Positions 5,597-57,302 of a stretch of DNA of 64,000 bases are shown here, one piece after another. Within the stretch, counting starts at the first letter, position 1, and every line of letters starts with the position of its first letter. Location of the stretch: NCBI GenBank assembly GCA_963827655.1, contig CAWHCF010000044.1, forward strand, positions 64,001 to 128,000, given 5' to 3'. A model generated the notes under the pieces. That model was given only the letters and a program-made list of their open reading frames with translations, had not been told where the DNA came from and did no database searches. This DNA is from an uncultured Acidobacteriota bacterium. Lineage in GTDB: Bacteria > Acidobacteriota > UBA6911. Made by a program: the position numbers and the translations under genes.

Positions 5597-5670
5597 GTAC
5601 CTGCTGTTTGCAATTACGGTGGCGTATTTTGGCAGTTGAGGCTTTAAAAGAAGAGCCGACAGAGACTAGG

Positions 5671-5754
5671 CCCGGCCGAAAGGCCGGGATTAGATGTGCA
5701 TTCAGAAGAGCGCCGAAGGCGCGACACAGCCGTAGTACCGGACCTTCGGACCTC
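5671..5754. repeat. REP-like hairpin cluster between convergent genes
   Basis: CCCGGCC-GAAA-GGCCGGG (5671-5688), then the imperfect inverted pair GAGCGCCGAAGGCGCGACAC / GTACCGGACCTTCGGACCTC. Confidence 0.55.
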
Positions 5755-5820
5755 GTGTCAGGGGCGTCTTGAAAACCCCGCCCCCATCGCTTCGCCTGCC
5801 TACTTTCCCCTCAGCACTTT

Positions 5821-27456: not shown

Positions 27457-27542
27457 CCTACTCCGGAACGGCAGTCGAGTTTGGTCCTTAGGTCGGAAAA
27501 CAAAGAAAGGGCGGGGTTTTGCGTCCTTATGAAGGGGTTGCA

Positions 27543-28145
27543 ATGAACGCGCTCGTAAGCGGTTCCTGGTACGCCTTGCGAATCAAATCGCGTCACGAAA
27601 GGATCGTGGCCGCGGCCCTGAACGGCAAGGGATACGAGGTATTTTTACCGCTTTATCGAGACCGGCGCCGCTGGTCCGACCGCATGAAAGAGGTCGAACT
27701 CCCCCTGTTCCCGGGTTATTTGTTCTGCCGGTTTGATGCGATGAAGCGCCTCCCCATTCTCATGACCCCGGGAATTGTTCAGCTCGTCGGAGTGGGGAAA
27801 AGCCCGCATCCAATTGAAGAGACAGAAATTACTGCCATCCAGTCCATCGTGATTTCGAGGCTCAACGCGCAGCCCTGGCCCTATTTACAGGTCGGGCAAA
27901 AAGTCCGCATTGAGCAGGGACCACTTACCGGCCTGGAGGGAATCCTAATTGCTTTGAAAAAAACGCATCGCCTTGTCGTCTCGGTTACGCTTCTCCAGCG
28001 TTCCGTTGCGGTGGAGGTGGATCATGATTGGGCGAGCCCAGTTTTGCCTGACCAGCCAGGGCGGGGAAAGGTTGCAGCTTCGGCTGCGACACATGTCGCC
28101 ACCAGTAACGCGGTGTGGGCTTCGCCTGAGACAATGATACGGTAG
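27543..28145 (+). CDS. NusG-paralog transcription antiterminator (UpxY/RfaH/LoaP-like)
   Basis: NGN domain WYALRIKSRHE..FLPLY..PLFPGYLF; KOW domain GQKVRIEQGPLTGLEG; first gene of the glycan operon. Confidence 0.9.
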   Translation: MNALVSGSWYALRIKSRHERIVAAALNGKGYEVFLPLYRDRRRWSDRMKEVELPLFPGYLFCRFDAMKRLPILMTPGIVQLVGVGKSPHPIEETEITAIQSIVISRLNAQPWPYLQVGQKVRIEQGPLTGLEGILIALKKTHRLVVSVTLLQRSVAVEVDHDWASPVLPDQPGRGKVAASAATHVATSNAVWASPETMIR

Positions 28146-28189: not shown

Positions 28190-29239
28190 ATGAGGATCGC
28201 GAAGTTGAGTAGCCTGCTGGTTTTTGTGCCCCTACTGGGCCTTACCCTGGGCTTAGCCTTTCAGCAAAGGGTTTCCGAGATCAAGCCTGAGCCCCAGCAA
28301 CCGGTACCCCAGCAAGCGGTAACCGAGACCAAGCCTGAGAACGCGCCTGCGGCGATGAAAGTCGAGAATCGCAAGTACATCCTGGGACCCGACGACGACA
28401 TCACTATCCAGGCGTTAGATGCTGATGAGATTTCCAACAAGCCCGTCCGCATCGACACCAGCGGAAATATCAATCTACCGCTGGTAGGGCGACTGCGCGC
28501 GGCCGGTCTCACGGTCGAGCAGCTCGAAGCTGAGATTGCGGCACGTCTCCGCACCTATATCCAGCAGCCGCATGTGGCGATCAGCGTCACCAACTTTCGC
28601 AGCCAGCCCGTGTCGGTGCTCGGAGCGGTGCGCAGCCCTGGAATTCACCAGCTCCAGGGACGAAAGACCTTGTTCGAGATTCTTTCCATGGCCGGGGGTC
28701 TTGCGTCGGAAGCGGGACACAGTGTAAAGATCACCCGCCAGATGGAGTGGGGACCCATTCCCCTCCCCTCCGCCACAACGGATCCTACAGGGAAGTTCAG
28801 CATCGCTGAAGTCAAGCTGAGGGCGATTCTGGAAGCCAGGAATCCTGAAGAGAATATCCTGATCCAGCCTCACGATATTATTTCGGTCCCGCGCGCCGAA
28901 CTGGTCTACGTGGTCGGGCAGGTTCGCAGACCCGGTGGGTTTGTCCTGAACGACCGTCAGAGCATTTCAATCCTCCAAGCTCTGGCGATGGCCGACGGGT
29001 TGACCAATATTTCGTCTGCAAAGAATGCCAGGATCATTCGCTCCACTGTCGGCGAGAATCGCGTCGAGATTCCGGTCAACCTGAAGTCGATTTTCGAGGG
29101 CAAATCGTCGGACGTTGCTCTGAAGGCGGATGATATTCTCTTCATTCCCACCAACGTGGCAAAGGGAGTATTCTTCAGCACCATTCAGACGGCAATTTCG
29201 GCTGCCACGTCCGCAGTCATCTACGGCGGTATGTACTGA
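28190..29239 (+). CDS. wza: Polysaccharide export protein (OPX/Wza family, SLBB domains)
   Basis: YILGPDDDI, GNINLPLVGRLRAAGLT, VLGAVRSPG, VVGQVRRPG. Confidence 0.88.
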   Translation: MRIAKLSSLLVFVPLLGLTLGLAFQQRVSEIKPEPQQPVPQQAVTETKPENAPAAMKVENRKYILGPDDDITIQALDADEISNKPVRIDTSGNINLPLVGRLRAAGLTVEQLEAEIAARLRTYIQQPHVAISVTNFRSQPVSVLGAVRSPGIHQLQGRKTLFEILSMAGGLASEAGHSVKITRQMEWGPIPLPSATTDPTGKFSIAEVKLRAILEARNPEENILIQPHDIISVPRAELVYVVGQVRRPGGFVLNDRQSISILQALAMADGLTNISSAKNARIIRSTVGENRVEIPVNLKSIFEGKSSDVALKADDILFIPTNVAKGVFFSTIQTAISAATSAVIYGGMY

Positions 29240-29368: not shown

Positions 29369-31693
29369 ATGAAATATCTTAAGCAGCTTCCAGGTAGTCA
29401 GACTCAAGAGATTGCTGTGCGCCATGTTGAGCCACAGCCCGCCCCCTATTATCCCCCGCAGCTCAATCGGGGCGATGCGGGTTTCACCGACGATTTCAGC
29501 CGCTGGCTGGAATACTGGCAGATCGTCCGGCGACACAAGGCCGTTGTGGTGCTACTGGCTCTGTTGGGTGGTGTGGGCGCGTTTCTTTACACGCTCTACC
29601 AGACGCCGGTTTATCGGGCCTATGCCACCCTGGAACTTCAGGGAATCCAGGAGCCCTTCCAGAGTGTTCGATTGTTGAATGAGGGGAATCCCTACGTTCA
29701 GACCCAGATCAAGCACCTGGAAAGCCGTACCCTTCGCCAGCGGGTCACTTCCAAAATGAAACCGCCGGAAGGACCGGTGGTTTCCTTTGCGGATCCCCTC
29801 CGGAGATTGCGCACGTCTCTCGGTCTCCCCGCACCCTCGGGAATACCCGGATGGAAGGAAGCGGTCGGGATGGCCGCGGGAAGCGTGAGAGTACTGGCCG
29901 AACATGATAGCCAGGTCGTCACCCTCCAGTGCGACTCGACCGACGCCAAGGTCGCCGCCGATTACATCAATCTGTTGGCCGAAGAATATATCGAGCAGAC
30001 TTCGGAAGAACGCTGGAAGACCTACCAGAGTACCGGCGATTGGCTTACTCGCGCCCAGGCAGAACTGAAGAAGAAGCTCGAGGATTCAGAGAACGAGCTG
30101 GCCGACTACGCGCGCGCTGAAAATCTGCTGTTTACTTCGGAAACACAGAGCGTAGCCGAAGAGAAGCTAAAGCAACTACAGGGAGAACTCGCCCGAGCCG
30201 CAGCCGATCGTATCGGCCGGCAGTCTCAGTACGAGACTACAGTCTCGAGTCAACCGGAGGCTTTGCCTGCGGTGCTTGATCACGGTCCTATCAGTCATTA
30301 CCAGATGCAACTCGCGGACCTCAATCGGCAAATGGCCGAATTGACCTCAGCTTTGACGCCGGACCACCCCAAGGTTAAGCGGCTGCAGGCTCAGATCGAC
30401 GAGGTGCGGGCAGGTCAAAAAAGGGAGCAGGGTAACATTCTCAGGCGTATTCGAATCGAATACGATACTGCCTTACGCCGTGAGAAGCAGCTCGAGAATG
30501 ACTTCGCGCGTCAGTCCAGAATAATCGAAGAGCAGGGAGAAAAGCTGATCCGTTACAAGATCCTCAAACGCGAGGTCGACAGCAACAGGCAGCTCTACGA
30601 GGCCACGCTGCAAAAGGGGAAGGAAGCCAGTATTGCTTCGGCACTCCAGGCCAGCAACGCCCAGGTGATCGATTCTGCGACTCCGCCAGGACTACCCTAT
30701 AAACCGAGCCTTCCTCTACACTCGGCTTTCGGCCTGGTTTGCGGTTTATTCTCCGGTGTTTTGTTGGCTTTCGTGCTCGAGCGCTCGAATGCCAGCATCC
30801 AGATGCCGGGTTTTCTGCCCTTCTACCTCAATGTGCGAGAGCTGGGAGTTATTCCTTCCGCGAAAGCGGATCCCGAAATGCGCCACTTGAGCAAGAAGTG
30901 GCAGCCGTTCGCCCTCCTCGGATCGAGCAAGCGCGACGCCGGAGCCCCCGGAAATGGCAAAGATCCTCGACGGGACGATGCCGAGTCCGTGGAACTCGTT
31001 ACCTGGACGCGGAAGCCGTCGCTTATGGCGGAATCGTTCAGGGCCACGATGGCGTCGATCCTGTTCTCGGGGCAGAATGGAAACCGGCCTCAGATCATCA
31101 TTCTCACCAGCCCGTCCCCCAAAGACGGGAAGAGCACCATCATCAGCAACCTGGCCATCGCCATGGCCGAGATCAATCGACGCGTGTTGCTCATCGACGC
31201 CGACATGAGAATACCCCGGCTCCACAAGATCTTCGACATCACCAATAGCTGGGGGCTGAGCGATGTGCTCTACGATCGGATTCCGATTGAGGACTACCCC
31301 GAAGAATCAATCGTGCGCAAGACCCAGATTCCCAATCTCAGCCTTTTGCCCAGCGGCCCGCGTCGCGTGAGCATTTCAAGCCTGCTCTATTCTCACCGGA
31401 TGGCAGAGCTGCTGTTCCGATTCAGGAGGGACTTTGAAACCATCCTGATTGACACGGCTCCCATGCTACAGATCTCCGACGCGCGCGTCCTGGCTCGCCT
31501 GTCCGACGGCGTCATCCTGGTATGCCGCGCCGGGCACACCACACGTGACGTGGCGATCGCGGGCATCAACTGTTTTGAAGAGGACGGCACGCCTGTGCTC
31601 GGCACGATTCTGAACAACTGGGATCCCAACGTCACAGGCTACAAGGCCTATTCCGCCTACTCCGAGTATTGTCGCAGCTCGCAAGCCTCTTAG
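29369..31693 (+). CDS. wzc: Polysaccharide co-polymerase / BY-kinase (Wzc)
   Basis: Two TM segments with a coiled-coil; AESFR, SPSPKDGKST, LIDADMR, ILIDTAP, C-terminal Tyr cluster GYKAYSAYSEY. Confidence 0.92.
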   Translation: MKYLKQLPGSQTQEIAVRHVEPQPAPYYPPQLNRGDAGFTDDFSRWLEYWQIVRRHKAVVVLLALLGGVGAFLYTLYQTPVYRAYATLELQGIQEPFQSVRLLNEGNPYVQTQIKHLESRTLRQRVTSKMKPPEGPVVSFADPLRRLRTSLGLPAPSGIPGWKEAVGMAAGSVRVLAEHDSQVVTLQCDSTDAKVAADYINLLAEEYIEQTSEERWKTYQSTGDWLTRAQAELKKKLEDSENELADYARAENLLFTSETQSVAEEKLKQLQGELARAAADRIGRQSQYETTVSSQPEALPAVLDHGPISHYQMQLADLNRQMAELTSALTPDHPKVKRLQAQIDEVRAGQKREQGNILRRIRIEYDTALRREKQLENDFARQSRIIEEQGEKLIRYKILKREVDSNRQLYEATLQKGKEASIASALQASNAQVIDSATPPGLPYKPSLPLHSAFGLVCGLFSGVLLAFVLERSNASIQMPGFLPFYLNVRELGVIPSAKADPEMRHLSKKWQPFALLGSSKRDAGAPGNGKDPRRDDAESVELVTWTRKPSLMAESFRATMASILFSGQNGNRPQIIILTSPSPKDGKSTIISNLAIAMAEINRRVLLIDADMRIPRLHKIFDITNSWGLSDVLYDRIPIEDYPEESIVRKTQIPNLSLLPSGPRRVSISSLLYSHRMAELLFRFRRDFETILIDTAPMLQISDARVLARLSDGVILVCRAGHTTRDVAIAGINCFEEDGTPVLGTILNNWDPNVTGYKAYSAYSEYCRSSQAS

Positions 31694-31705
31694 CGAGCCC
31701 TCCAG

Positions 31706-31790
31706 GTGTCTTCGCGTCTCGGCGGTGGATGTTTTTGTTGCCCCACCCCGAAGACGCGAAGGCGCACATGAAACGCGAAGCGACATTTTA
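31706..31790 (+). repeat. Degenerate member of the (A/C)ACC.CGAAGAC repeat family (inverted pair)
   Basis: GTGTCTTCGCGTCTCGGCGGTG ... CACCCCGAAGACGCGAAGGCGC ... ACGCGAAG. Confidence 0.55.
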
Positions 31791-31803
31791 AGGCGAAGCA
31801 CTC

Positions 31804-33657
31804 GTGACCACCAGCATCCTCGGAATCTCGGGCTACTACCACGACTCCGCCGCCGCCCTGATAAGCGACGGTGAAATCATTGCGGCAGCTCAAGAGGAAC
31901 GTTTTACCCGGCTCAAGGGGGACCCGCGGTTTCCTGGCAACGCAATAGCTTATTGCCTTGCCGAGGCCAACATCGATTCGTCAGAGCTTGACTACGTCGT
32001 CTTTTACGAACAACCGTGGATCAAGTTCGGGCGTCTGATGGAGACCTACCTCGCTTTCGCTCCCCGGGGCTTTCAGTCCTTCCGCCAGGCCGCGCCGGTC
32101 TGGGCCCGCCACAAGCTGCGTCTGTCGCAGGAAATAAAATCGCGACTGGGACCGAAGTTCCGAGGCCGCTTCTGTTTTGCCCGGCATCACGAATCCCATG
32201 CGGCAAGCGCTTTCTTCCCCTCCCCCTTCGAAGAGGCGACTATCCTCACGCTGGACGCCGTTGGCGAATGGGCGACAAGCTCGATCGGCGTCGGTCGCGG
32301 AAACCGACTTACCCTCACCCACGAGCTGCATTTCCCTCACTCGCTGGGAATGCTCTACTCGGCCTTCACTTACTACACGGGCTTCAAGGTCAATTCCGGC
32401 GAATACAAGCTGATGGGCCTGGCGCCTTATGGCAAGCCGCAATACGTCGATGTGATTCTCGAGAAAATCGTCCGGATCGCCGATGATGGCTCCCTCTGGC
32501 TCGACATGGACTACTTCAACTACTGCCAGGGTCTGACGATGACCTCGGACAAATTTCATAATCTCTTCGGGGGGCCGCCGCGCAAACCGGATAGCATGCT
32601 TACTCAGAAGGACATGGACCTGGCCGCGTCCATACAGGTTGTCTGTGAAGAGGTAGTCCTCCGCAACGCCCGGCACGCGCATCAGCTGACGGGGATGCGG
32701 AACCTGGTCATGGCGGGCGGCGTAGCGCTGAATTGTGTCGCTAATGGCCGGATTCTACGCGAGGGTCCCTTCGAGAAAATCTGGGTCCAGCCGGCTGCGG
32801 GAGATGCGGGAGGAGCCCTCGGCGCGGCCCTGCTGACATGGCACCAACTGCTCGGAAAATCGCGACAACCCAAGCCGCAAGACAGTCAGGGGGGGTCCCT
32901 TCTAGGGCCGGCCTTCACCAATGATGAGATCGCCCTTTTTCTTGACTCGGTCGGTGCCCACTACGACTACCTTGGCGACGAAAGCAGCTTGATCGATCGC
33001 GTGGGCCAGCTGTTAGCTCAAGAAAAGATCATCGGCTTCTTCCAGGGACGTATGGAGTTCGGACCTCGCGCCCTGGGATCCCGCAGCATCATAGGCGATG
33101 CTCGCTCCCCCCGGATGCAGCAAGACATGAACTTGAAAATAAAGTTCCGGGAATCGTTCCGGCCGTTTGCTCCGTCGGTGCTGCGTGAATTCGCCGACAC
33201 GCTGTTTACACTCCGTCCGAACGAGGAGAGTCCTTATATGTTGTTCGTCGCACCGGTTCGTGAAGGCGTGAGAAAGCCCCTGAACCCTGAGGACCTCGAG
33301 CGAATGCAGGACCCCGATTTGAGAGTTCGAGTCTCGGTGCCGCGATCGAGCGTCCCGGCGGTAACCCACGTCGACTATTCTGCAAGAATCCAGACCCTCG
33401 ATCCGGAACGTCACGGTCGCTTCTACCGCCTGGTGCGACGGTTTTACGAACTGACCGGGTGTCCTGTAGTCGTCAATACAAGCTTCAACATACGGGGTGA
33501 GCCCATCGTTTGCACGCCCGACCAGGCGTTTCGCTGCTTCATGGCCACAGATATGGACTGCCTGGTTCTGGAGAACTTCGTTCTTATGAAAGACACTCAA
33601 CCCGCAGGCCTGCTGCAGGACGCCGAGGCCTATAAGGCACAGTATTCCCCGGACTAG
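31804..33657 (+). CDS. O-carbamoyltransferase, NodU/CmcH/SxtI family
   Basis: ILGISGYYHDSAAAL, AAQEERFTR, HHESHAASAFF, GEYKLMGLAPYG, AGGVALNCVAN, EFGPRALG, KFRESFRPFAP, NTSFN. Confidence 0.95.
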   Translation: MTTSILGISGYYHDSAAALISDGEIIAAAQEERFTRLKGDPRFPGNAIAYCLAEANIDSSELDYVVFYEQPWIKFGRLMETYLAFAPRGFQSFRQAAPVWARHKLRLSQEIKSRLGPKFRGRFCFARHHESHAASAFFPSPFEEATILTLDAVGEWATSSIGVGRGNRLTLTHELHFPHSLGMLYSAFTYYTGFKVNSGEYKLMGLAPYGKPQYVDVILEKIVRIADDGSLWLDMDYFNYCQGLTMTSDKFHNLFGGPPRKPDSMLTQKDMDLAASIQVVCEEVVLRNARHAHQLTGMRNLVMAGGVALNCVANGRILREGPFEKIWVQPAAGDAGGALGAALLTWHQLLGKSRQPKPQDSQGGSLLGPAFTNDEIALFLDSVGAHYDYLGDESSLIDRVGQLLAQEKIIGFFQGRMEFGPRALGSRSIIGDARSPRMQQDMNLKIKFRESFRPFAPSVLREFADTLFTLRPNEESPYMLFVAPVREGVRKPLNPEDLERMQDPDLRVRVSVPRSSVPAVTHVDYSARIQTLDPERHGRFYRLVRRFYELTGCPVVVNTSFNIRGEPIVCTPDQAFRCFMATDMDCLVLENFVLMKDTQPAGLLQDAEAYKAQYSPD

Positions 33658-33661
33658 AGTT

Positions 33662-34228
33662 ATGTTTTCACTCATCCTTCCTCCCGCGCGACGTTATTCC
33701 ATTCTGATCGGTTTCTGGCTCGCTCTCAGTCTTTTCGCTGGAATAACCCTCGGTGCTATTCTGTCGCTGTGGGTATCCCCGACGCTGATGACTCTCGGTC
33801 TGATTGCGGTTCCGGTCCTGGCTCTACCCGGACTGCTGTGGCCGCAGGTGGCGATTCTACCTTACGTGGTCTGGAATAAACTGGCGAGGGAGTTCGGGCG
33901 CTATTCGCGCGCGTGGTTGATGGCCATCTGCTTCTATGTGATTGTGGTGGCTGTAGGGCGAAGCGGAGCGTCACTCCAGCTTGCCCGTCCTGATTCAGGC
34001 CAATCGCTGTGGGTTCGCCGGCAAGATCCCTCTGGAGCCCGCAACGGCTTCGAACGGGTCGTCGCCGCGGATGAATCTTCCAAGAGCTGGATTCGCAACT
34101 TCCTCAAGTGGAGTGCGCGATCGAGCAATCTTTGGGCCTGCGGCGTGCTGCCGTTCTTAGTCCTGATCTCGGCTCTCGACCCCGAACAGGACAACACCGT
34201 CCCCAAAGATATCTACACGCTATTCTAA
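33662..34228 (+). CDS. SxtJ-like membrane protein with fused SxtK/DUF5989-like C-terminus (..KDIYTLF)
   Basis: TM segments, PYVVWNKLAREFG..LMAICFYVIV (SxtJ-like), ends IYTLF; immediately after the carbamoyltransferase. Confidence 0.65.
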   Translation: MFSLILPPARRYSILIGFWLALSLFAGITLGAILSLWVSPTLMTLGLIAVPVLALPGLLWPQVAILPYVVWNKLAREFGRYSRAWLMAICFYVIVVAVGRSGASLQLARPDSGQSLWVRRQDPSGARNGFERVVAADESSKSWIRNFLKWSARSSNLWACGVLPFLVLISALDPEQDNTVPKDIYTLF

Positions 34229-34236
34229 GGTTTTCA

Positions 34237-35358
34237 GTGACTTCCATTCGCTCAGTTCTGGCCCTGATCGCCTCCCTGGCCGGTTTGCTTCTGGCGGCTC
34301 CAATTGTCGTGCTTGGTCTCCCCTTCTGGGCGGTAGCCTGGCTGACCAAGCGAATCACCGGATTGCTGGAACCGGAGATCGTGCTCTGGGACCAGCTCAT
34401 AAGATTCGACCCGACCTTCGGCTGGAAGCCGAAGGCGAACCTGAATACTCACTGCGTTTCAGAGTTGGGAGGCGAGGTCTTTCACGTAACGACCGATTCT
34501 GAGGGATGGCCGGGAGCGTCCACGATCGACGAGAGCTCAATCACGGTCTTCGGCGACTCCTTCGCTTTCGGTTACGGAGTGAACGCTGAGGCCTTGTTTT
34601 CCGAGGTCAATCCTAAACTCCGCGTCAAAGCCATCGGAGCTCCCGGCTACAACATGGTTCAGGAAGTGATGTGGATGGATCGATTGTCGTCCCATCTCAG
34701 AGGGAAGCTCGTCGTTTGGTTTATTTATGTTGGCAACGATCTGTACGAGAACCTGCAGCCAAACATGCAGGATTACCGAACGCCTTTTGTGCGCCGTGCC
34801 GGTTCGACCGGTGAGTGGCAGATCGTCACCAGCCATCTCAGCTCGTCGAGGTGGTGGCCGTATCACGTGAATGACAAGTTGAGGTCCGCTCAGAGATTCG
34901 CCGCAATCTTCGGGACATCCTTCTTGTCAGAGCGGGTCTATTCGGCCTGCGAGTTTCTGATCAGAAAAGGAAACAATATCTGTGCGCACGCCGGCGCCTC
35001 GCTGGCAGTCACTACAATACCCATCATAGATCAACTGAGCTTGAATGGCTGGAAACAGCGAATATCTGAGCTGGGATATCCGGAATCTCTCGACCTCAAC
35101 CAGCCGGACCGTAAAATCGCCGAAATCTGCTCGACGTTGGGAGTCCGCTTCGTCGCAGGAAAGGACCACCTCAATGCCCGGCATTTCATTCCGGCAGACG
35201 GTCATTGGAATGAAAAGGGGCATCAAAGAATAGCGGATCTGCTGGCCGAGCTTCATCAACAGCGGCACCCGGCGGCCCGGAACGATACTGATCCGGAACT
35301 GCGTCTCTCACACGCGCAAAAACGCCCGACGGGCACGTTTCAGTGGCGCACCGATTGA
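34237..35358 (+). CDS. Membrane-anchored SGNH/GDSL-fold protein
   Basis: N-terminal TM; FGDSFAFGYGV, GAPGY, YVGNDL, DGHWNEKGH. Confidence 0.8.
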   Translation: MTSIRSVLALIASLAGLLLAAPIVVLGLPFWAVAWLTKRITGLLEPEIVLWDQLIRFDPTFGWKPKANLNTHCVSELGGEVFHVTTDSEGWPGASTIDESSITVFGDSFAFGYGVNAEALFSEVNPKLRVKAIGAPGYNMVQEVMWMDRLSSHLRGKLVVWFIYVGNDLYENLQPNMQDYRTPFVRRAGSTGEWQIVTSHLSSSRWWPYHVNDKLRSAQRFAAIFGTSFLSERVYSACEFLIRKGNNICAHAGASLAVTTIPIIDQLSLNGWKQRISELGYPESLDLNQPDRKIAEICSTLGVRFVAGKDHLNARHFIPADGHWNEKGHQRIADLLAELHQQRHPAARNDTDPELRLSHAQKRPTGTFQWRTD

Positions 35359-35454
35359 CTGAGACCAGGGGTTTCCACGTGGCTTCGAGTCTAAGTCACT
35401 GGCTGCATTTAGGCAAGTCGCGGGCATCGGTGTGTCAGGCGTCCTCGAATTTGC

Positions 35455-35608
35455 TGGCGCTTCATGGATCTTACCCCTGAGAACAAAACTCGAGAAAAAC
35501 AAAGTATGGATCTACGGCCAGAACGATTCGACGCACTGGTCCCACCCTGGCACGGCTTTTGCGGCAGAGACGATGGCGGAAGAACTCGTAAAGGTGATGG
35601 CCCAATAG
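35455..35608 (+). pseudogene. 3' remnant of an SGNH/AlgX-like gene (relic 1)
   Basis: Manual translation WRFMDLT / PLRTKLEKNKVWIYGQNDSTHWSHPGTAFAAETMAEELVKVMAQ*; homologous to the relic at 40818-41006. Confidence 0.65.
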
Positions 35609-35697
35609 CACAGGCGCCCCGTTCAGGTTTCACGCAAACGTCCTCCGGGCGCAACGTCTCATTGATTTCGTAATAATAACCATCGCTGGAGCTGATC

Positions 35698-36990
35698 ATG
35701 AACCAGGATAACACAGGGGAATCCGCGTTCGGCCGCTCGATCGGGCGAGGAACCTTCAGGTCTGCAACGCCTGATTCCCTCCAGTCTCTAGTTCTGATTA
35801 ATGTAGGCACATTTTTATTGTGTACATTGCTCGCTTTCCTCGCTGCAGAGCTCATGTTCCGTTGGTTTTCCCCGATGGTCCAAGAAGCCGGAGCTGGGCA
35901 TCGGCCAAGCAGGAACCCCGTCTTATTGCACGAACCCATACCCGGGCATTCAAATACGAATAGCGACGGTTTACCCGATCACGAATACTCGGTTGCGAAG
36001 CCGGCGGGCACAAAGCGAATCCTGGTCCTGGGCGACGACGTGGTCTCTGGATTTGGTGTTTCCCTGCCGGACACTCTTCCGAAAGGCCTTGAAGCCGCTT
36101 ACAAAGCCAATGCCGAGTCTGTCGAGGTGCTTAACTTCGGTGTTTCCGGGTACGATACCCAGCAGGAGATTGAATTCTTCAAAGCCAAGGGAATCAAATA
36201 CCGCCCGGACATCGTCGTCGTGGTCTACGTCATGAACGACAATCGCTATGCCTCTCAGGAGTTGAGAGATTTAAGCGACGTCAAATTTTTGGCCGTTCCC
36301 AGGCCGCCGAGTGCAAATCCCCTCAAACGAGGGGCAGCATCCTTGTTCCATTCTTCACGCTTCCTGCAGTTTCTCGGTGCTCAGTGTCATATTGAGAGAA
36401 AACTCCCATTTCTCCAGGATTACCCTCGGTTGATCGACTACGTGGAGGAAAAGAATCTTCGAGAGCGGGACTCATCCGACAGCAAGTACGCTCAACTGGA
36501 AACCCAGGTTCAAGTCCGCGCCGAAGAGATTGGAACCACGCCGGACGCGCTCGAGTTCTCCATCCACGCGCTGGGGTTCCGGCATAGTGAGACCCTCTAC
36601 CAGTCCCATTGGAATGCCTCCTACCAGGCATTGACCAGACTGAAGGCTTTATCCGACGAGTACTCGTTCCAGGTTGTGGTCGTAGTCTTGCCTATCATGT
36701 ACCAAATGGACCGGTATCCGCTAAAGCCTGCGCATGACTTTTTTCGAAGCAATTTTGAATCACTCGGTTTCCAGACCGTCGACCTGCTCGAAATATGCAA
36801 ACATCTCTACAGCGTCTACGGATACTCGGCGGTCTCGCCGGACGGCATTCATTTAACGCCTTTCGCCGTGAAGAAAGTAGCCGGATACCTGTACAATCGG
36901 ATCCCCCTCGAGCGCCCGTTTCGCCCCGGGCGGGACGAGTCTCTCCTCGTGCACTCCCCCGGGCTCGGCCGCCAGAGCGCATTTCACTGA
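35698..36990 (+). CDS. SGNH/GDSL-fold protein with GDD in place of GDS
   Basis: TM anchor; RILVLGDDVVSGFGV, VLNFGVSGYDT.QE, YVMND, DGIH. Confidence 0.8.
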   Translation: MNQDNTGESAFGRSIGRGTFRSATPDSLQSLVLINVGTFLLCTLLAFLAAELMFRWFSPMVQEAGAGHRPSRNPVLLHEPIPGHSNTNSDGLPDHEYSVAKPAGTKRILVLGDDVVSGFGVSLPDTLPKGLEAAYKANAESVEVLNFGVSGYDTQQEIEFFKAKGIKYRPDIVVVVYVMNDNRYASQELRDLSDVKFLAVPRPPSANPLKRGAASLFHSSRFLQFLGAQCHIERKLPFLQDYPRLIDYVEEKNLRERDSSDSKYAQLETQVQVRAEEIGTTPDALEFSIHALGFRHSETLYQSHWNASYQALTRLKALSDEYSFQVVVVVLPIMYQMDRYPLKPAHDFFRSNFESLGFQTVDLLEICKHLYSVYGYSAVSPDGIHLTPFAVKKVAGYLYNRIPLERPFRPGRDESLLVHSPGLGRQSAFH

Positions 36991-37200
36991 GCGATCTCTA
37001 GCGCCGGCCTTCGCTGACCCCCCTTCCCTCGAACAGCAACCTCTGTGAGCTAAATGCCGCTATCAAGAAATCATCCTCGAGCGTCAGGGTAGAGTTCTTG
37101 TTCGGGCCGGGTCTTGCTGGAGATCGCGCCCTGCGACTGCTCGAGCTGTCGGGCGAAATCCATTTCATGCATCCAATGATATGAGCTTTAATTGTCATCT

Positions 37201-38307
37201 ATGCAGAATCATCCTCCGATTAAATTGATCGCCGTTGGTGATATTTGTCCTGGTGATCACAACTGCATGGGTTTTGGCACGGGAACGCTGATGAGGTCCC
37301 GTGGGCCATCATTCCCATTGCAACACGTGACGCACATGTTGCGCGAGGGCGACATCGTTTTCGGCAACTGCGAAGGGGTGCTCTCGAATGTTGGTGCAGA
37401 CCACAGAAACATCGACACCATGGAATTTCGGGGCATGCCAGAATTCGCAACCGCTCTTCGCAATTCTGGTTTTACCGTTCTGACGGTGGCAAATAACCAC
37501 GCTGGCGAACACGGGAGGGAAGCGCTATTTGACACCATCAACAATTTGCAATCGGCTGGTATCAAGGTCATCGGTCTGCGCGACGAGAACCGCACCGCTG
37601 TACCGCTGATACAAGAGATCAACGGCATTCGGATTGGCTGGCTGGCGTATACGTGGATTGTCTCTAAAAATACTAGCCAGGACCGCGCGCTACTATCGTG
37701 GACAAGGGGCAACGAGGTATCTACCGAAATCGCAACACTTCGTCCCAAGGTCGATTTTCTGATCGTTACTGCCCATTGGGGACGTGAGATCATTAGGGTC
37801 CCACCACAGAATGTGATCGATGCCGCTCACGCCATGGCGGAAGCGGGTGCCGACCTGGTGCTCGGACATCATCCGCATATGCTTCAAGGAATCGAACGTC
37901 ATGGCAGGTGTGTCATCGTCTACAGCCTCGGCGACTTTGTATTCGATGACTGGCTATATTGGTTTCGCGAGAGGGCTCTTTTTCGTTGCACGATCGAGGC
38001 GGGCAAGGCCCATAACCCCGAGTTCATCCCGCTGATGAGTAACCGACAGTTTCAGGTCGCTCCCGCTACAAAGGCCCAGAGAACTCGCATCTTAAGAAAA
38101 ATCGACGCGAGTACTCGCGCCATAACCGACCAGAGACTGGCTCACTTGCGAGATGAAGCTAAAGCCAAGCAGCTTGAGGCAAGGCGAAAGCGCCTCTTTT
38201 GGGGAGCCCGAGTCCTGTTCCTTACTGCCAATATTGGACGAATGGGGCCACGCATCGCCTACCAGAAGCTCTGCCGTCATTTCCCGCTGCCTTACGTAGG
38301 TAACTGA
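37201..38307 (+). CDS. CapA/PgsA family metallophosphoesterase-fold protein
   Basis: AVGD, GNCEG, VANNHAGEHG, HWG.E, GADLVLGHHPH, YSLGDFVF. Confidence 0.88.
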   Translation: MQNHPPIKLIAVGDICPGDHNCMGFGTGTLMRSRGPSFPLQHVTHMLREGDIVFGNCEGVLSNVGADHRNIDTMEFRGMPEFATALRNSGFTVLTVANNHAGEHGREALFDTINNLQSAGIKVIGLRDENRTAVPLIQEINGIRIGWLAYTWIVSKNTSQDRALLSWTRGNEVSTEIATLRPKVDFLIVTAHWGREIIRVPPQNVIDAAHAMAEAGADLVLGHHPHMLQGIERHGRCVIVYSLGDFVFDDWLYWFRERALFRCTIEAGKAHNPEFIPLMSNRQFQVAPATKAQRTRILRKIDASTRAITDQRLAHLRDEAKAKQLEARRKRLFWGARVLFLTANIGRMGPRIAYQKLCRHFPLPYVGN

Positions 38308-40618: not shown

Positions 40619-40817
40619 ATGATAAAGAAGGTTGATTATTGTTAGCGAGGACAAGATTGGAAACCGTTTGCTGCGAATGTCAGACAGGTTAGGCTATGAC
40701 ACTCGGTCAACCTCTTGCGGCCAGCAGGTCACCCAATATCTAACTTCCCGGCGGCGGTTTCGAGCCGGATTTTCAACAGCCGTCACCGCAACATCCGGAC
40801 ATGCCAGACGGCATGCC

Positions 40818-41006
40818 TGGACTTTCCTCGATTTGACGGAACCCCTCCGAAGCAAACTCAAGACGACCAAAGCGTGGATTTACGGCCGCCACGACGGAGC
40901 TCATTGGTCCGGGGCTGGCAGTCTAATTTTCGCAGACGTGCTGGCCACAGAACTCCTTCGGGTTATCGGTCCGACGACACCGCCAAAGCGCCTGAAAAAA
41001 ACCTGA
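40818..41006 (+). pseudogene. 3' remnant of an SGNH/AlgX-like gene (relic 2)
   Basis: WTFLDLTEPLRSKLKTTKAWIYGRHDGAHWSGAGSLIFADVLATELLRVI with a DxxHW motif; no N-terminal GDS block upstream. Confidence 0.65.
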
Positions 41007-42086: not shown

Positions 42087-43082
42087 ATGCCAAGCAATCC
42101 TTCACTAACCGTAGTGTTGCCCGCCCACAACGCAGAAGCGACGATTGCTCCTGCGATCGCGAGTACTCTGAATCAGAGCTACTCGGATTTTGAATTGTGG
42201 GTGCTCGAAAACGGGTCCACTGACGCCACGGCGGAAGTAGCAAAGTCGTTCTCAGACCCGAGGGTGCGGGTTTTTGAGCTCGGTCCCGTAGGATTCCAAG
42301 GGGCGCTGCAATACGCCATCGAGAATTCAGAGTCGGAGTGGCTGGCGCGCATGGACGCCGACGATCTGATGTTTCCCCACCGGCTGAAAGTGCAGATGCA
42401 GGTCATCGCGCAGCATCCGGAGCTCGTCTTCGTCGCCAGCCACTATGCCCTCCTGACGCCTTTTGGCAGCATGTTCGAGCGGCTCTTAACGGTTCCGTCG
42501 AGCGAGGTCGATAGTTCGAGACTGAGCAAAGGCCGCTTTTTCGCCGATCCGTCCACGATCTTTCGGCGCCAGATAGCGCTGGATGCTGGCGGTGTCGACC
42601 CGGAATTTACCTCGGGCGACGTTCCGCTGTTGTTTCGTCTGTTAAGCGTATGGGAAAGGGTTTGAAATCGCTGAACCGCTTTACCTCTATCGCATCCAGC
42701 CGAATTCGATGTGCCGAAGCACAGACTTTCGGCGCCAGGGACTTCGAGCGCGCGCCAAGTATGCCCCTGAAACCGTCGATCCTTCGGCACAAGCCAGGGA
42801 CGAAGTCAGCGCCTGGGCTTTTATTCTAGGGCTGGAGCTCTTGGCCCGGAATGGACCGGGTGTCCGCCAGGCGGCGGACTACCTCGAAGCAAACAGGAAC
42901 AAAGGCGAATTGGGCCAGATGGCTGAGCTACTTCCCGACGGCTGGGCTATCAATACTACAGATTGTGGGACTGCTCCGGGTTCCGGTACCGGCACAGGCC
43001 CGATTGGGAAACTCTTTTCAAGCCTCTTATGGAACCGGAGCCGCGCGAAATCCCCGGACGTACGCTCGTTGAAACTTGTTAG
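42087..43082 (+). CDS. GT2 family glycosyltransferase, frameshifted (~42650 and ~42900-42940)
   Basis: VVLPAHNAE, ENGSTD, ARMDADD; continues as EPLYLYRI.. and finally ..RHRPDWETLF..ETC* at 43082. Confidence 0.75.
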
Positions 43083-43083
43083 T

Positions 43084-44169
43084 ATGAAAAGTGCTTCGGG
43101 CGAAATCTCCTCATTCGTCGGATCAAAAGTGAACACCAATAGCAATCAACCCATAGAGAACCAGGACACTTCGTGCCTGATCGTCGCAGAGGTGGCTCAG
43201 GCACACGACGGCAGCCTCGGCATGGCCCACGCCTATATAGATGCGGCAGCAAACGCCGGAGCCGACGCAATCAAGTTCCAGACCCATATCGCCGCGGCGG
43301 AATCGACTCCAGGAGAGCCGTGGCGCGTAAAGTTCAGCCCGCAGGACGCGACCCGCTACGACTACTGGAAGCGAATGCAGTTTACCGAAGACCAGTGGCG
43401 AGGTCTCAAGCGCCACGCTTCGGAGCGCGGCTTGAAGTTTCTCAGCTCCCCTTTTTCTCTCGAGGCTGTACAGCTCCTCAATCGTGTAGGAGTCACAGCC
43501 TGGAAGGTGGCTTCCGGCGAGGTTAACAACACCTCGATGTTGCAGTGTATGGCTGCCACGGGTCTGCCCATACTTCTGTCGACCGGGATGAGTCCTCTGC
43601 CCGAAATCGATTTCGCTGTAGATCGAGTGAAGCAATATGGCCTGCCCCTTACGCTGCTGCAGTGCACCACGGCCTACCCCTGTCCGCCGGAAAAGGTCGG
43701 GCTGAACCTGATACCGTTTTTCCGGGCGCGTTATGGCTGCCAGGTCGGCCTGTCGGATCACTCGGGAACCATCTACGCCGGTCTTGCGGGCGCCGTTCTT
43801 GGGATCGCTGTTCTGGAAGTGCACGTCACTCTCAGCCGGGAGATGTTCGGACCCGACGTTCCGGCCTCGATTACGACCACCGAGCTGCGCCAACTGGTCG
43901 CCGGCATCCGCTTCATAGAGAAGATGATGGCGAATCCGGTCGACAAGGATGCCATGGCAGTGGAGATGGCGCCTTTGCGGAACCTCTTTACCAAGAGCAT
44001 TGTTCTCTCATCGGACTTGCCTGCGGGCACCGTGCTGCGAAAAGAACACTTGACCATCAAGAAGCCAGGAACCGGCATTCCCGCCGACAGGCTACCCGAA
44101 CTCGTAAGCCGCACGCTAAAACGAGCGGTAACCGCTAACAGCTTGCTTTCGGAAGACGACCTTGCCTAA
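43084..44169 (+). CDS. neuB: Nonulosonic (sialic) acid synthase
   Basis: IVAEVAQAHDG, GADAIKFQTH, SSPFS, KVASGE, STGMS, QCTTAYP, GLSDHS, EVHVT, C-terminal SAF domain KKPGTGI. Confidence 0.92.
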   Translation: MKSASGEISSFVGSKVNTNSNQPIENQDTSCLIVAEVAQAHDGSLGMAHAYIDAAANAGADAIKFQTHIAAAESTPGEPWRVKFSPQDATRYDYWKRMQFTEDQWRGLKRHASERGLKFLSSPFSLEAVQLLNRVGVTAWKVASGEVNNTSMLQCMAATGLPILLSTGMSPLPEIDFAVDRVKQYGLPLTLLQCTTAYPCPPEKVGLNLIPFFRARYGCQVGLSDHSGTIYAGLAGAVLGIAVLEVHVTLSREMFGPDVPASITTTELRQLVAGIRFIEKMMANPVDKDAMAVEMAPLRNLFTKSIVLSSDLPAGTVLRKEHLTIKKPGTGIPADRLPELVSRTLKRAVTANSLLSEDDLA

Positions 44170-45421
44170 TTCGCTACGCCGTAAAATATGTGTTGTTCTG
44201 GTTGACCGGGCTAACTATGGCCGCCTGAAGCCGGTCATGAAGGCTATCGCAGACCGGCCAGAGCTTGAACTCCAGGTTCTTGCCGCCGGAACGATGGTCC
44301 TGGAACGCTTTCAGCAGCCTGTGCACGTTGTGAAACAGGACGGCTTCTCTGTGGACGGCGAGATCTACATTGAACTGGAAGGCTCCACCCCGGCCACCAT
44401 GGCAAAATCCGTCGGTTTCGGCGTCGTGGAGTTCGCAAGCGAGTTCCAGCGGCTCAAACCGGATCTGGTGCTGGTCATCGGCGATCGATACGAGGCGCTG
44501 GCGGCCGCTATCGCTGCTGCGTATATGAACATCTGTATCGCCCACATACAGGGTGGCGAGGTTTCCGGATCGATTGACGAAAGCGCGCGCCATGCGATCA
44601 CACGATTTGCGCATTTCCATTTTCCGAGCACGAGGCGTTCCGCGGAGTATCTGGTTCGCATGGGAGAAAATCCGAAGACGATTCTCGCCCTAGGGTGCCC
44701 CAGCAGCGATATCGCTCGCGACCTCGATCGAACGCTTCCGCCCTCAGCGATCAATGCCCTGGGCAGCGGCGCGGCGATCGATCTCTCCGATGCGTTTCTC
44801 CTGGTGGTCTTTCATCCCACGACCACGGAATACGGAGGAGAGCGCCGGCAGATGGAGGAGGTTCTCGAGGCCCTCGATAACATCCAGCGTCAGACCGTTC
44901 TCCTCTGGCCGAACATTGATGCCGGAGCCGATCACATCAGCAAGGCGATTCGAACCTTTCGCGACCGGGTGAAACCAGCCTGGCTCCATGTCATAACGAA
45001 CCTGAGCCCGGAGGATTATCTGAAGGTGCTGGCCCATGCCTCCTGCGCCGTCGGGAACTCCAGCAGCTTTGTGCGCGATGCCAGCTATTTCGGAACGCCG
45101 GTGGTTTTAGTGGGAAACCGGCAGGATGGACGCGAGACCGACCAGCACGTCATGCCCGTGCCTCCTCTGGCCGCGGAGATCACTGCCGCAATACGCGAGC
45201 AACTTGCGCATGGACCCTATGCTCCCAGCAGCCTTTACGGAGATGGACATGTCTCCGAACGAATTGCCGAGGCGCTCAGCCGCCTCACTCCCTATGTTCA
45301 GAAGCGCCTGAGCTACATGGGGCAAGGTAAAGCCGAGTTTGTCGAGCGCGCTTCCCAAACCACGGATCTCAAATCGAGCGACGATCTTGCCTCAAGCTGG
45401 GCGCTGCATTCTTCGGATTAG
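44162..45421 (+). CDS. neuC: Hydrolysing UDP-N-acetylglucosamine 2-epimerase
   Basis: RANYG, GDRYE, HIQGGEVSGSIDESARHAIT, FHPTT, PNIDAG, GNSSS, GNRQDGRE, YGDG. Confidence 0.92.
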   Translation: MPNSLRRKICVVLVDRANYGRLKPVMKAIADRPELELQVLAAGTMVLERFQQPVHVVKQDGFSVDGEIYIELEGSTPATMAKSVGFGVVEFASEFQRLKPDLVLVIGDRYEALAAAIAAAYMNICIAHIQGGEVSGSIDESARHAITRFAHFHFPSTRRSAEYLVRMGENPKTILALGCPSSDIARDLDRTLPPSAINALGSGAAIDLSDAFLLVVFHPTTTEYGGERRQMEEVLEALDNIQRQTVLLWPNIDAGADHISKAIRTFRDRVKPAWLHVITNLSPEDYLKVLAHASCAVGNSSSFVRDASYFGTPVVLVGNRQDGRETDQHVMPVPPLAAEITAAIREQLAHGPYAPSSLYGDGHVSERIAEALSRLTPYVQKRLSYMGQGKAEFVERASQTTDLKSSDDLASSWALHSSD

Positions 45422-45435
45422 CGGGATCGCGCCTT

Positions 45436-45487
45436 TGGAGTGCGCAAGCTTGCTTGCGCCTTGTGCAACGGCAGCTTGCTGCCGGTT
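45436..45487. repeat. REP-like double hairpin
   Basis: GGAG-T-GCGCAAGC-TT-GCTTGCGC followed by CGGCAGC-TT-GCTGCCG. Confidence 0.6.
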
Positions 45488-45515
45488 GTAAGAAATGAAT
45501 GGGATCAGCGCTCGA

Positions 45516-46223
45516 ATGAAGGTTCTGGCAATTGTACCTGCGCGCGGCGGATCGAAAGGGATTCCGCGCAAGAATATCGCGCCCCTCATGGGAAAGCCGC
45601 TCCTGGCCTATACGGCCGAAGCGGCCCGGGCCGCCGGGCGTTTGACCCGGGCGCTTCTCTCAACTGAGGACGAAGAGATCGCTCGCGTAGGACGACAGTA
45701 TGGTCTGGACGTGCCGTTTCTGCGGCCGCCGGAACTGGCGCGCGACGATACTCCGACGATCCCCGTATTACAGGACGTGGTTCGGAAGCTTGAAGCCGTG
45801 GGGGATCGTTACGATGCAATCTTCGTGCTCCAGCCGACCAACCCGCTCCGGCGAGCGCAAGACATCGACGGCGCCATTGAGCTCCTGGAACGCACAGGCG
45901 CAGATTCAGTGATCTCGTTCGTTGATGTAGGGGAAAAGCATCCGGCCCGAATGAAGATCGTTACTGCCGAGGGCAGGGTCATGAATCCGTCTTTCGCCGA
46001 GCAATTCGAGGGTCAGCCCAGGCAGGCTCTCTCGAAGCTTTATCTGCGCGAGGGCTCGATCTACCTTACCCGCAGGTCCGTACTCATGGATCAAAGCTCG
46101 ATTCAGGGATGCGACTGCCGGGCCTGGCTCATCCCCGAGGAACGAGCGTGCAACATTGATAACCCGTTTGACCTTTTTCTGGCTGAACAGATCATGAGGT
46201 ACCATGCCGTCCAAGCGACCTAG
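45516..46223 (+). CDS. neuA: Acylneuraminate cytidylyltransferase
   Basis: IVPARGGSKGIPRKNI, STED, PFLRP.ELA.D, LQPTNPLR, NIDNPFD. Confidence 0.92.
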   Translation: MKVLAIVPARGGSKGIPRKNIAPLMGKPLLAYTAEAARAAGRLTRALLSTEDEEIARVGRQYGLDVPFLRPPELARDDTPTIPVLQDVVRKLEAVGDRYDAIFVLQPTNPLRRAQDIDGAIELLERTGADSVISFVDVGEKHPARMKIVTAEGRVMNPSFAEQFEGQPRQALSKLYLREGSIYLTRRSVLMDQSSIQGCDCRAWLIPEERACNIDNPFDLFLAEQIMRYHAVQAT

Positions 46224-57266: not shown

Positions 57267-57302
57267 GTCTTCGCGCTCAACCATTTCAACGGATCAATAA
57301 TC

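Follow-up and report, generated by a model that had tools for sequence, protein, structure and literature searches.

A conserved carbamoyltransferase, membrane protein and SGNH gene cassette in an acidobacterial surface-glycan locus, with a possible role of a C-terminal tyrosine in carbamoyl transfer

We analyzed a 64,000-nucleotide stretch of DNA from an uncultured Acidobacteriota bacterium (contig CAWHCF010000044.1, positions 64,001 to 128,000; G000:C44:64001-128000), here called the window, which holds a surface-glycan locus. Three consecutive genes of this locus encode a carbamoyltransferase (CT), a small membrane protein that we call JK and whose last residues include the tyrosine Tyr185, and a putatively membrane-anchored protein of the SGNH type (SGNH1). 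The results showed that CT-JK-SGNH1 is a conserved cassette. The statement best supported by the analysis is that JK is an obligate, pocket-side partner of a distinct clade of carbamoyltransferases. It is also plausible, and partly supported, that the three proteins are a conserved carbamoyl-transfer module of an exopolysaccharide locus and work as a relay, in which Tyr185 would take the carbamoyl group from CT and give it to SGNH1; we put this forward tentatively, as a reading whose chances fall somewhat short of even.

Results

Conservation of the cassette

A search with a profile of the smaller JK alignment (A3) revealed 10 metagenome loci with JK proteins of 36-97% identity, whereas the same profile found no relative in genome contigs. 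CT was located directly 5' of JK in nine of the ten metagenome loci, and a homologue of SGNH1 directly 3' of JK in eight of the nine that reached that far, the remaining one having only a 63-aa SGNH1 remnant. In the tenth locus (L050), an open reading frame (ORF) resembling GMC oxidoreductases takes the place of CT, and the JK protein ends in DTYPLF, with proline for the near-invariant threonine.

An independent survey based on SGNH1 gave 52 orthologue loci (L073-L124), defined by a match covering most of the protein; the matches in the other 28 loci were partial, at 22-38% identity. JK was immediately upstream of SGNH1 in 50 of the 52 orthologue loci and CT was upstream in 49, at a distance of 3.6 kb in L085. 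The exceptions were one contig that begins inside JK, and loci L084 and L114, which have neither gene. The orthologues span at least 10 phyla, and their hosts belong to Acidobacteriota, Gemmatimonadota, Nitrospirota, Verrucomicrobiae, Binatia, Desulfobacteraceae, Gammaproteobacteria, Brocadia, Methylomirabilales and Actinomycetota, the last being represented by the cultured Ornithinicoccus halotolerans (L119). A relative of the family 2 glycosyltransferase (GT2) of the window was found within 6 kb in 26 of the 52 loci, often right after SGNH1. The wzc gene was present in five, in four of which it stood just upstream of CT as in the window (L073, L074, L120 and L123), and the wzc-to-CT order was also seen in metagenome loci L043, L044 and L048.

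JK as a fusion of SxtJ-like and SxtK/DUF5989-like parts

Judged by profile comparison, JK appears to be a fusion protein, with an SxtJ-like part (residues ~8-125) and a part resembling SxtK and the DUF5989 family (residues ~144-188). When a 139-member JK alignment (A2) was compared by hhalign with eight canonical SxtJ proteins, residues 8-125 were matched with a probability of 98.3% (E 2.4e-14), and in the comparison with 18 canonical DUF5989 proteins residues 144-188 were matched with their positions 5-50 with a probability of 55% (E 1.2e-4). Of 401 genomes from the phylum of the window, 73 contained matches to the A2 profile. The fused form in a single frame was found only in the genome of the window (E 3.6e-70; next best match 1.6e-18), the other 72 matches being split pairs or SxtJ alone; 11 split SxtJ/DUF5989 gene pairs followed the profile colinearly to its very end, with one or two stop codons in between. 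The preliminary description of the window had related the small protein to SxtJ and SxtK, and the profile homology and the colinear split pairs bear this out. The Pfam check that it had called for turned out negative, since JK of the window did not match the SxtJ model (PF19588) even at E ≤ 10 or the DUF5989 model (PF19451), and Pfam and NCBIfam scans with the whole protein and with its two halves gave nothing meaningful. Among the 139 family members, 12 matched the SxtJ model at E ≤ 0.01 (best 1.1e-5).

The JK family comprised 585 representative clusters (E ≤ 0.001), nearly all of 185-190 aa, and in a protein atlas the clusters nearest to JK carried PF19451 in 10-11% and PF19588 in 17% of their members. 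The AlphaFold2 model of JK (predicted local distance difference test, pLDDT, 86.5) contains helices at residues 12-37, 40-59, 61-100, 140-153, 158-172 and 182-187; it had no fold match in the PDB (best Foldseek E 0.92), to a channel or an acyltransferase either. The parallel with the sxtI-J-K-L genes that had been drawn earlier also holds at the level of gene length: sxtJ (405 nt) and sxtK (165 nt) correspond to 134 + 54 = 188 aa, and the GDSL gene sxtL has 1281 nt, according to the gene table of the 2009 saxitoxin-cluster paper, which gives the function of both SxtJ and SxtK as 'Unknown' (PMC2679770).

Conservation of the C-terminal tyrosine motif

The terminal motif of JK is conserved far beyond chance. 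As many as 165 of 171 homologues, down to approximately 30% identity, end in YTL[F/Y] and one ends in YSLY; among the other five, four are shorter and seemingly cut off, and one 188-aa protein ends in IYTVS. In the 139 sequences of A2, W117, Y185 and L187 are invariant and T186 is nearly so. The JK copies of the SGNH1-based genome loci end in Y[T/S/A]L[F/Y] in 49 of 50 cases, the other locus being frame-broken.

A similar terminus is found in the DUF5989 family, which has at least 7997 sequence clusters: 17 of the 18 canonical proteins end in PFIY[T/A][L/V/I]F and one in PMIYTIF, and all 120 close relatives end in F[I/V]YT[L/V]F. Thus the FIYTLF-like end that had been attributed to SxtK was seen in this family (18/18 and 120/120), the level at which the claim was checked, and the conservation of the terminal tyrosine on which the proposed relay depends was confirmed. 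The canonical terminus FIYTLF fits FXYXXF, a C-terminal hexapeptide of DltX and, among bacterial membrane-bound O-acyltransferases (MBOATs), of PatA and others, the tyrosine of which hands the acyl group to an SGNH partner; the PatA peptide of that study is FIYANF, and the tyrosine of DltX is described there as extracellular (PMC12148441). In the JK of the window (KDIYTLF), I-Y-T-L-F is kept and the proline and the first phenylalanine of PFIYTLF are replaced. The suggested hidden Markov model (HMM) comparison with DltX gave no support, as a Pfam scan of the 18 DUF5989 proteins at E ≤ 10 found no DltX-family match. Because of this result and the loss of the first phenylalanine, the likeness of DUF5989 and JK to DltX is at the motif level only. 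A reading of the terminal aromatic residue as an outer-membrane beta-signal was dropped because, as far as we are aware, the spacing of the tyrosine is different in that signal.

The carbamoyltransferase and its predicted complex with JK

CT matched Carbam_trans_N (PF02543; 1.5e-98) and Carbam_trans_C (PF16861; 4.5e-68), and thus has the Kae1-like N-terminal and YrdC-like C-terminal domains of class III O-carbamoyltransferases. Its best solved relatives were GdmN (3.3e-88) and TobZ (7e-71). Residues H13, H128, H132, D151 and D334 were invariant in 19 J/K-linked CTs; counted by hand on the HMMER alignment, H13 aligns with H27 of GdmN, and the other four with H133, H137, D156 and D333. In GdmN, H27 is the general base and the other four residues are iron ligands (PMC9633730), suggesting that CT has the two His and two Asp metal ligands and the general-base His of class III enzymes. 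The 19 CTs were 56-78% identical (mean column identity 64%), a high likeness that fits a single constant acceptor. A tree of 60 CTs cleanly separated the 36 with a linked fused JK from the 24 with linked split J/K genes (36/36 vs 0/24, support 1.0). The tree was made of CTs that cover the model in one frame, with frame-broken copies and copies cut by contig ends left out.

To assess binding, the complex of CT and JK was predicted, and the interaction prediction score from aligned errors (ipSAE) was 0.81, 0.79 and 0.77 (median 0.79) against 0.00, 0.23 and 0.00 for the controls. In the calibration, 58 of 80 solved complexes had attained the pass mark, as had 2 of 110 mismatched pairs; these counts apply only roughly here because we used our own alignments. 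At least 82% of the contacts were common to the runs, and the partner pLDDT was at least 71. The pairing with the carbamoyltransferase that had been proposed for the C-terminal peptide thus passed, with the tail in the interface, and the prediction supports binding between CT and JK. No solved complex of such a type is known to us.

The tightest pairs were formed by JK residues 116-118, around the invariant W117, with CT residues 173-176 and 228-232. On the JK side, the predicted interface consists of residues 83-110 and 113-120, of helices 140-153 and 158-172 on one face, and of the entire tail (175-188); all three invariant positions (W117, Y185 and L187) are within it. On the CT side, it consists of residues 11-13, 66-110, 130, 152-153, 183, 190, 195-197 and 224-246, which correspond, by a hand count and with residue roles as described for GdmN (PMC9633730), to H27, the oxyanion-hole residues 157-158, helix 1, helix 2 and loops 1-3 of the acceptor pocket.

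The split form of the system

In all 20 split loci of the window's phylum, the genes of CT, SxtJ and DUF5989 were adjacent, in two gene orders. The contexts varied, some trios lying between rplI and dnaB, some among DegT, GT2, GT4 and wzc genes, and some elsewhere. Loci L064 and L067 (G082 and G069) have the order rplI, CT, SxtJ, DUF5989, dnaB and alr, followed in L064 by mlaE; in L053 (G039) the scanned span from CT to mlaE is without rplI, and its DnaB has an intein-splicing domain match. The split loci were scanned with Pfam at E ≤ 1e-4, and again with our own SGNH1 profile and SGNH2, the product of the gene after SGNH1 in the window, because the Pfam scan at that threshold would miss this SGNH clade. 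Five of the 28 distant SGNH loci carry an adjoining split trio (L130, L141, L148, L149 and L150). In L076 (Candidatus Brocadia) and L099 (Gammaproteobacteria), a fused cassette is separated by no more than 3-4 kb from a split trio on the same strand, and in L076 there is a second SGNH gene between them. Similarly, sxtL follows sxtK in saxitoxin clusters (PMC2679770), and sxtJ, K and L are grouped in the suomilide gene cluster as it is described in PMC10157211. The synteny of the fused and split loci therefore points to CT with J/K as the constant unit, with SGNH fixed in the fused form and occasional elsewhere.

The genome of the window has a second, canonical split locus 48 kb downstream (G000:C44:143587-146018; L012 5576-8022). 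Its DUF5989 protein ends in APFIYTLF, and after the locus come genes for methyltransferases, a metallo-beta-lactamase-fold protein and a sugar transferase as well as a PGA_cap gene. The CT of this locus is in two frames (N-domain 5576-6730 and C-domain 6513-7427 of L012), owing to a frameshift or an assembly error. In L071 (G385:C6), an insertion sequence-type transposase pair (rve, HTH_Tnp_1) lies between a two-frame CT and the SxtJ-DUF5989 pair.

SGNH1 and SGNH2

The start of SGNH1 is most likely the GTG at 34237, and the same 373-aa product is present in the database (P0174). The Pfam GDSL matches of SGNH1 and SGNH2 were below the curated cut-off (20.5 vs 32.9 bits for SGNH1), and each protein has a hydrophobic N-terminal helix. 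In 41 sequences, the SGNH1 blocks GDS, G, GND and (D/E)xHW..GH were invariant or nearly so, with full invariance of G106-D107-S108, N167-D168 and H323-W324..G328-H329, and an acidic residue was usually found two positions ahead of the catalytic-block His. At least 739 relatives of SGNH1 were found. Its model (pLDDT 89.9) shows an SGNH fold, with 108 PDB matches at E ≤ 0.001 that were all of the SGNH type among those listed. Blocks I, II, III and V together with the modelled fold place SGNH1 in the SGNH/GDSL superfamily, and from their conserved residues both CT and SGNH1 look active.

The closest solved structure to SGNH1 was that of CgnD (PDB 8a2n; Foldseek E 2e-10). In VIA-align the pair had Z 19.8 and a root-mean-square deviation (rmsd) of 4.0 with 234 residues aligned, followed by TesA in the next row (Z 13.8, rmsd 2.5, 167 aligned). 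The SGNH1 profile had no sequence match in the PDB, CgnD included (16-17% identity). CgnD is described as an esterase-fold hydrolase that slowly frees the C-terminal, Ile-Tyr-Trp-derived core of crocagin; the pathway includes the carbamoyltransferase CgnI, and its authors state that carbamoylation might come before the cleavage (PMC10070186).

SGNH2 was 28% identical to SGNH1 over blocks I-III (E 5e-6). By phmmer, relatives of SGNH2 were present in one of the 52 cassette loci vs 22 of the 28 other SGNH loci, and the latter include the neighbours of the five split trios named above. SGNH2 is thus outside the conserved fused cassette, in a broader SGNH group that occurs occasionally beside split CT-SxtJ-DUF5989 trios.

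The side of the membrane

The charge counts of the JK loops 63-85 and 100-157 were net positive (+3.4, +2.3, +1.0) and that of the tail net negative (-2.4); the hydrophobic stretches, with 14 (86-99) and 15 (158-172) residues, are short. Canonical DUF5989 proteins have a Lys + Arg count of 4.9 before the helix and 0.4 after it. These charges predict that the tail is outside, as in DltX. For SGNH1, the N-tail had a Lys + Arg count of 1.1 and an Asp + Glu count of 0.05, and the flank after the helix had 1.8 and 3.2, respectively, so that the protein leans toward an N-in, domain-out orientation; it also has four conserved Cys columns. The complex model, on the other hand, has helix 158-172 rest on cytoplasmic CT together with the tail, which means that either only helices 12-59 span the membrane, or folding without a membrane is misleading. 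For CT to load the tyrosine and SGNH1 to unload it, the one tail must be within reach of both, and thus either all of this would take place at the inner face or the tail would travel. The location of the tail is the weak point of the relay idea, and of the extracytoplasmic relay proposed in the preliminary description: the charge counts agree with that proposal, and the complex model contradicts it.

The locus and the genome

The gene order noted earlier, from wzc through the carbamoyltransferase and, after 4 bp, the small polytopic protein ending in KDIYTLF to the membrane-anchored SGNH genes, proved correct (Table 1). There are 110 bp between the end of wzc and the start of CT, a 4-base spacer between the CT stop and the JK start, 8 bases between the JK stop and the SGNH1 start, and 339 bp between SGNH1 and SGNH2. 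The absence of an MBOAT gene from the window was likewise confirmed, and it extends to the whole 8.18-Mb genome (90% complete), in which neither MBOAT (PF03062) nor acyltransferase family 3 (AT3; Acyl_transf_3, PF01757) had a match at E ≤ 0.001; these are the two usual membrane acyltransferase families.

Table 1. Positions of the cassette and of neighbouring genes in the window
Feature	Position	Strand	Remarks
NusG-like gene	27519-28145	+	
wza	28190-29239	+	
wzc, chain-length regulator / tyrosine kinase	29369-31693	+	Pfam GNVR, Wzz, AAA_31
CT, NodU/TobZ/GdmN-type class III O-carbamoyltransferase, 617 aa	31804-33657	+	TAG stop 33655-33657
JK, 188-aa membrane protein, ATG 33662	33662-34228	+	C-terminus ...VPKDIYTLF
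JK codons for terminal IYTLF (residues 184-188; Tyr185, proposed carbamoyl carrier)	34211-34225	+	
SGNH1, 373 aa, N-terminal hydrophobic helix	34237-35358	+	Ser108 codon 34558-34560
SGNH2, 430 aa, second membrane-anchored SGNH protein	35698-36990	+	weak GDSL matches

A PGA_cap gene lies 3' of SGNH2, followed by a methyltransferase, a FemAB-like gene and glycosyltransferases, and farther downstream there are NeuB, UDP-GlcNAc 2-epimerase, a cytidylyltransferase, more transferases and a Wzm/Wzt-type ABC exporter. NeuB, the 2-epimerase and the cytidylyltransferase are the nonulosonic-acid set of a glycan locus. With the genes at 42709-47196 and 56525-58571, Wza/Wzc is combined with a Wzm/Wzt-type exporter, and there are apparently two export routes in one region. 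A promoter and terminator scan of 31500-37400 gave no more sites than shuffled sequence. Two short plus-strand ORFs in intergenic gaps (35432-35608 and 40632-41006) have a common 43-aa C-terminal stretch (47% identity, E 5e-15) of the form ..WIYGxxDxxHWSxxG... This stretch is similar to block V of SGNH or AlgJ-like proteins, and the two ORFs may represent either remains of genes or conserved small ORFs.

Discussion

In the proposed relay, CT would be a cytoplasmic enzyme that makes carbamoyl-AMP in an ATP- and carbamoyl-phosphate-dependent manner. JK, lying on the acceptor pocket of CT, would present the hydroxyl of Tyr185 to it, much as HypE presents its C-terminal Cys to HypF, by which it is carbamoylated (PMC12130793; PMC9633730). 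Ser108 of SGNH1 would then attack the O-carbamoyl-Tyr, an activated aryl carbamate, and SGNH1 would hand the carbamoyl group to a glycan hydroxyl, in analogy to the transfer from the tyrosine of DltX or PatA to DltD or PatB. Four elements of this scheme we infer: the Tyr-carbamate, the action of SGNH1 as a transferase and not a hydrolase, the acceptor, and the face of the membrane at which the hand-over would occur. That the scheme amounts to a third, MBOAT/AT3-independent route of envelope-glycan decoration, in which the CT-loaded C-terminal Tyr-carbamate of SxtK/DUF5989 proteins serves as the donor for an SGNH transferase, we regard as unlikely, although worth stating.

The cassette resembles several known systems, and differs from each of them. 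Like sxtI-J-K-L, it has the order carbamoyltransferase, small membrane protein(s) and GDSL/SGNH protein; the combined length of SxtJ and SxtK is that of JK, the N-terminal part of which is homologous to SxtJ (PF19588), and the C-terminal part appears colinear with DUF5989 (PF19451) and has a similar end. Unlike them, JK is fused, has diverged too far for both Pfam models and has lost the first F of FIYTLF; the SGNH family is a distinct and tightly linked one, the CT forms a separate clade, and the locus is a polysaccharide locus instead of a toxin cluster. With DltB-DltX-DltD and PatA-PatB it shares a tyrosine four residues from a free C-terminus with an aromatic end, a small membrane protein and an adjoining gene for a membrane-anchored SGNH protein, but there is no MBOAT and no acyl-CoA or carrier-protein donor, the activator being a soluble transferase that would form carbamoyl-AMP. 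In addition, there is no DltX-family HMM match, and DltD is a mid-rank structural match to SGNH1. HypF and HypE, as they are described in the papers cited above, belong to the same Kae1-like/YrdC-like superfamily, and in that pair a dedicated partner carries the acceptor residue in its C-terminal tail; here, however, the residue would be a Tyr-OH instead of a Cys-SH, the partner is a membrane protein, and the proposed next step is transfer instead of dehydration to cyanide. Finally, CgnD, the best structural match to SGNH1, has a Tyr-containing C-terminal peptide as its substrate, in a pathway with a carbamoyltransferase (PMC10070186), but it is a soluble protein of 16-17% identity that slowly cleaves a peptide bond, whereas SGNH1 has an N-terminal hydrophobic helix.

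A number of observations weigh against the relay, the evidence for which is all computational and comes from sequence, synteny and models. The output of the complex prediction is a list of interface residues and not a contact of Tyr185 with CT, and the model lays one face of the presumed membrane helix 158-172 on soluble CT, a placement that the lack of a membrane during folding may have caused. If the tail is outside, as its charge predicts, it could not reach CT. The DUF5989 homology of the C-terminal part of JK is moderate at the sequence level; none of the 139 family members matched the Pfam DUF5989 model, and the first F of FXYXXF is lost in the fused family, being D in the JK of the window. 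In L050, JK occurs without CT upstream and with the end TYPLF. As to the last step of the relay, CgnD, the nearest structure to SGNH1, acts as a hydrolase/protease and not as a transferase (PMC10070186), and DltD ranked only 48th-50th (Z 12.1, rmsd 4.2, 212 aligned). The preliminary description had regarded SGNH proteins as the partners of the carbamoyltransferase and the small protein, and this stands for the fused form (50/52 and 8/9 loci) but not for the split loci in general, where an SGNH1-like gene was adjacent in one of 20 (with the SGNH1 profile) and an SGNH2-like gene in two or three of 20 (L058, L069 and, weakly, L061). Since most split trios are without an adjacent SGNH gene, the SGNH step is not general.

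The main alternative is that JK is an adaptor. The role of J and K would then be confined to anchoring CT at the inner membrane face and completing its acceptor pocket for direct carbamoylation of a membrane-embedded acceptor, e.g. a lipid-linked sugar; the tyrosine motif would be a binding or catalytic element of the pocket and not a covalent carrier, and SGNH1 would act separately, e.g. as a trimming esterase or decarbamoylase, the role proposed for SxtL. The model indeed puts JK on elements of the CT acceptor pocket, and since a loop of the other monomer completes the pocket in GdmN (PMC9633730), a pocket-completing subunit is plausible. The lack of an adjacent SGNH gene in at least 17 of the 20 split trios and the hydrolase nature of the nearest solved structure to SGNH1 are in line with such a role, and given the Wzm/Wzt ABC exporter in the window, the glycan could be finished in the cytoplasm. 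An adaptor leaves unexplained, however, the near-invariance of the last four residues across at least 10 phyla, the FXYXXF match of DUF5989 and the fixation of SGNH1 to the fused form (50 of 52 loci), and we consider it doubtful, if a serious contender. The likeness to CgnD also raises the question of a peptide product similar to RiPPs, which are peptides synthesized ribosomally and modified post-translationally: CT would carbamoylate the tail tyrosine of JK (or SxtK), and the CgnD-like SGNH1 would cut the tail off, so that a small carbamoylated peptide is set free. CgnD is the nearest structure by a wide margin (Z 19.8 vs 13.8), it frees an Ile-Tyr-Trp-derived core in a pathway with CgnI (PMC10070186), and the JK tail is in the CT interface. 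Nevertheless, an invariant 'core' and a conserved membrane-protein 'leader' are the reverse of the usual RiPP pattern, and the cost of one 188-aa membrane protein per product molecule would be high. Moreover, DUF5989 is very common (at least 7997 clusters), often in housekeeping or glycan contexts and not in natural-product clusters; SGNH1 and CgnD have no sequence-level match, and in other crocagin-like clusters a glycosyltransferase replaces the carbamoyltransferase. A peptide product is therefore very improbable.

The relay in the strict, extracytoplasmic form of the preliminary description could work if the helices of JK, docked on the pocket of CT, formed a conduit in which the flexible tail dips to cytoplasmic CT, is loaded, and swings out again to extracytoplasmic SGNH1. 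Such a through-membrane shuttle, which would carry an acyl-type group across the membrane without an MBOAT, is a special case of the relay and its likelihood does not add to that of the latter. The charge counts favour it, with an outside tail and an N-in, domain-out SGNH1, as do the four conserved Cys columns, the extracellular tyrosine of DltX (PMC12148441) and the finding that the genome has no MBOAT/AT3 match. The canonical DUF5989 tail, being neutral, rich in small residues and 14 residues long, might also span the bilayer if extended. By contrast, JK has no channel or acyltransferase fold match (best Foldseek E 0.92), the complex model is without such an arrangement, and the tail of the fused family bears approximately three acidic residues. 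We know of no precedent for a shuttle of this kind and consider it quite unlikely.

The association of CT with SxtJ and SxtK and the two Pfam families were already known. What appears to be new is the fused form, together with its fixed SGNH partner, the link through the motif and the interface that the model predicts. In the searchable literature, from which subscription papers and supplements are excluded, the term 'DUF5989' occurred in no paper and no function was found for SxtJ or SxtK. Judging by their titles, the papers naming both SxtJ and SxtK deal with cyanobacterial and dinoflagellate toxins, genomes and natural products, and none of those with both 'carbamoyltransferase' and 'SGNH' is on such a cassette. 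The word carbamoyl does not occur in the 2025 paper on MBOAT-SGNH systems (PMC12148441).

The question is made testable by a three-gene cassette with one residue to mutate, a predicted acceptor-pocket interface and at least one cultured carrier. If the relay is true, it would provide a function for SxtJ and SxtK of the saxitoxin clusters and for a DUF family with at least 7997 clusters. A real Tyr-carbamate would extend the principle of the acyl-Tyr shuttle from acetyl and D-alanyl groups to carbamoyl and from MBOAT/AT3 proteins to a soluble adenylating enzyme, and would suggest that many uncultured phyla have polysaccharides with O-carbamoyl groups. If the Tyr-carbamate is not real, J and K are still defined as obligate pocket-side subunits of one clade of carbamoyltransferases.

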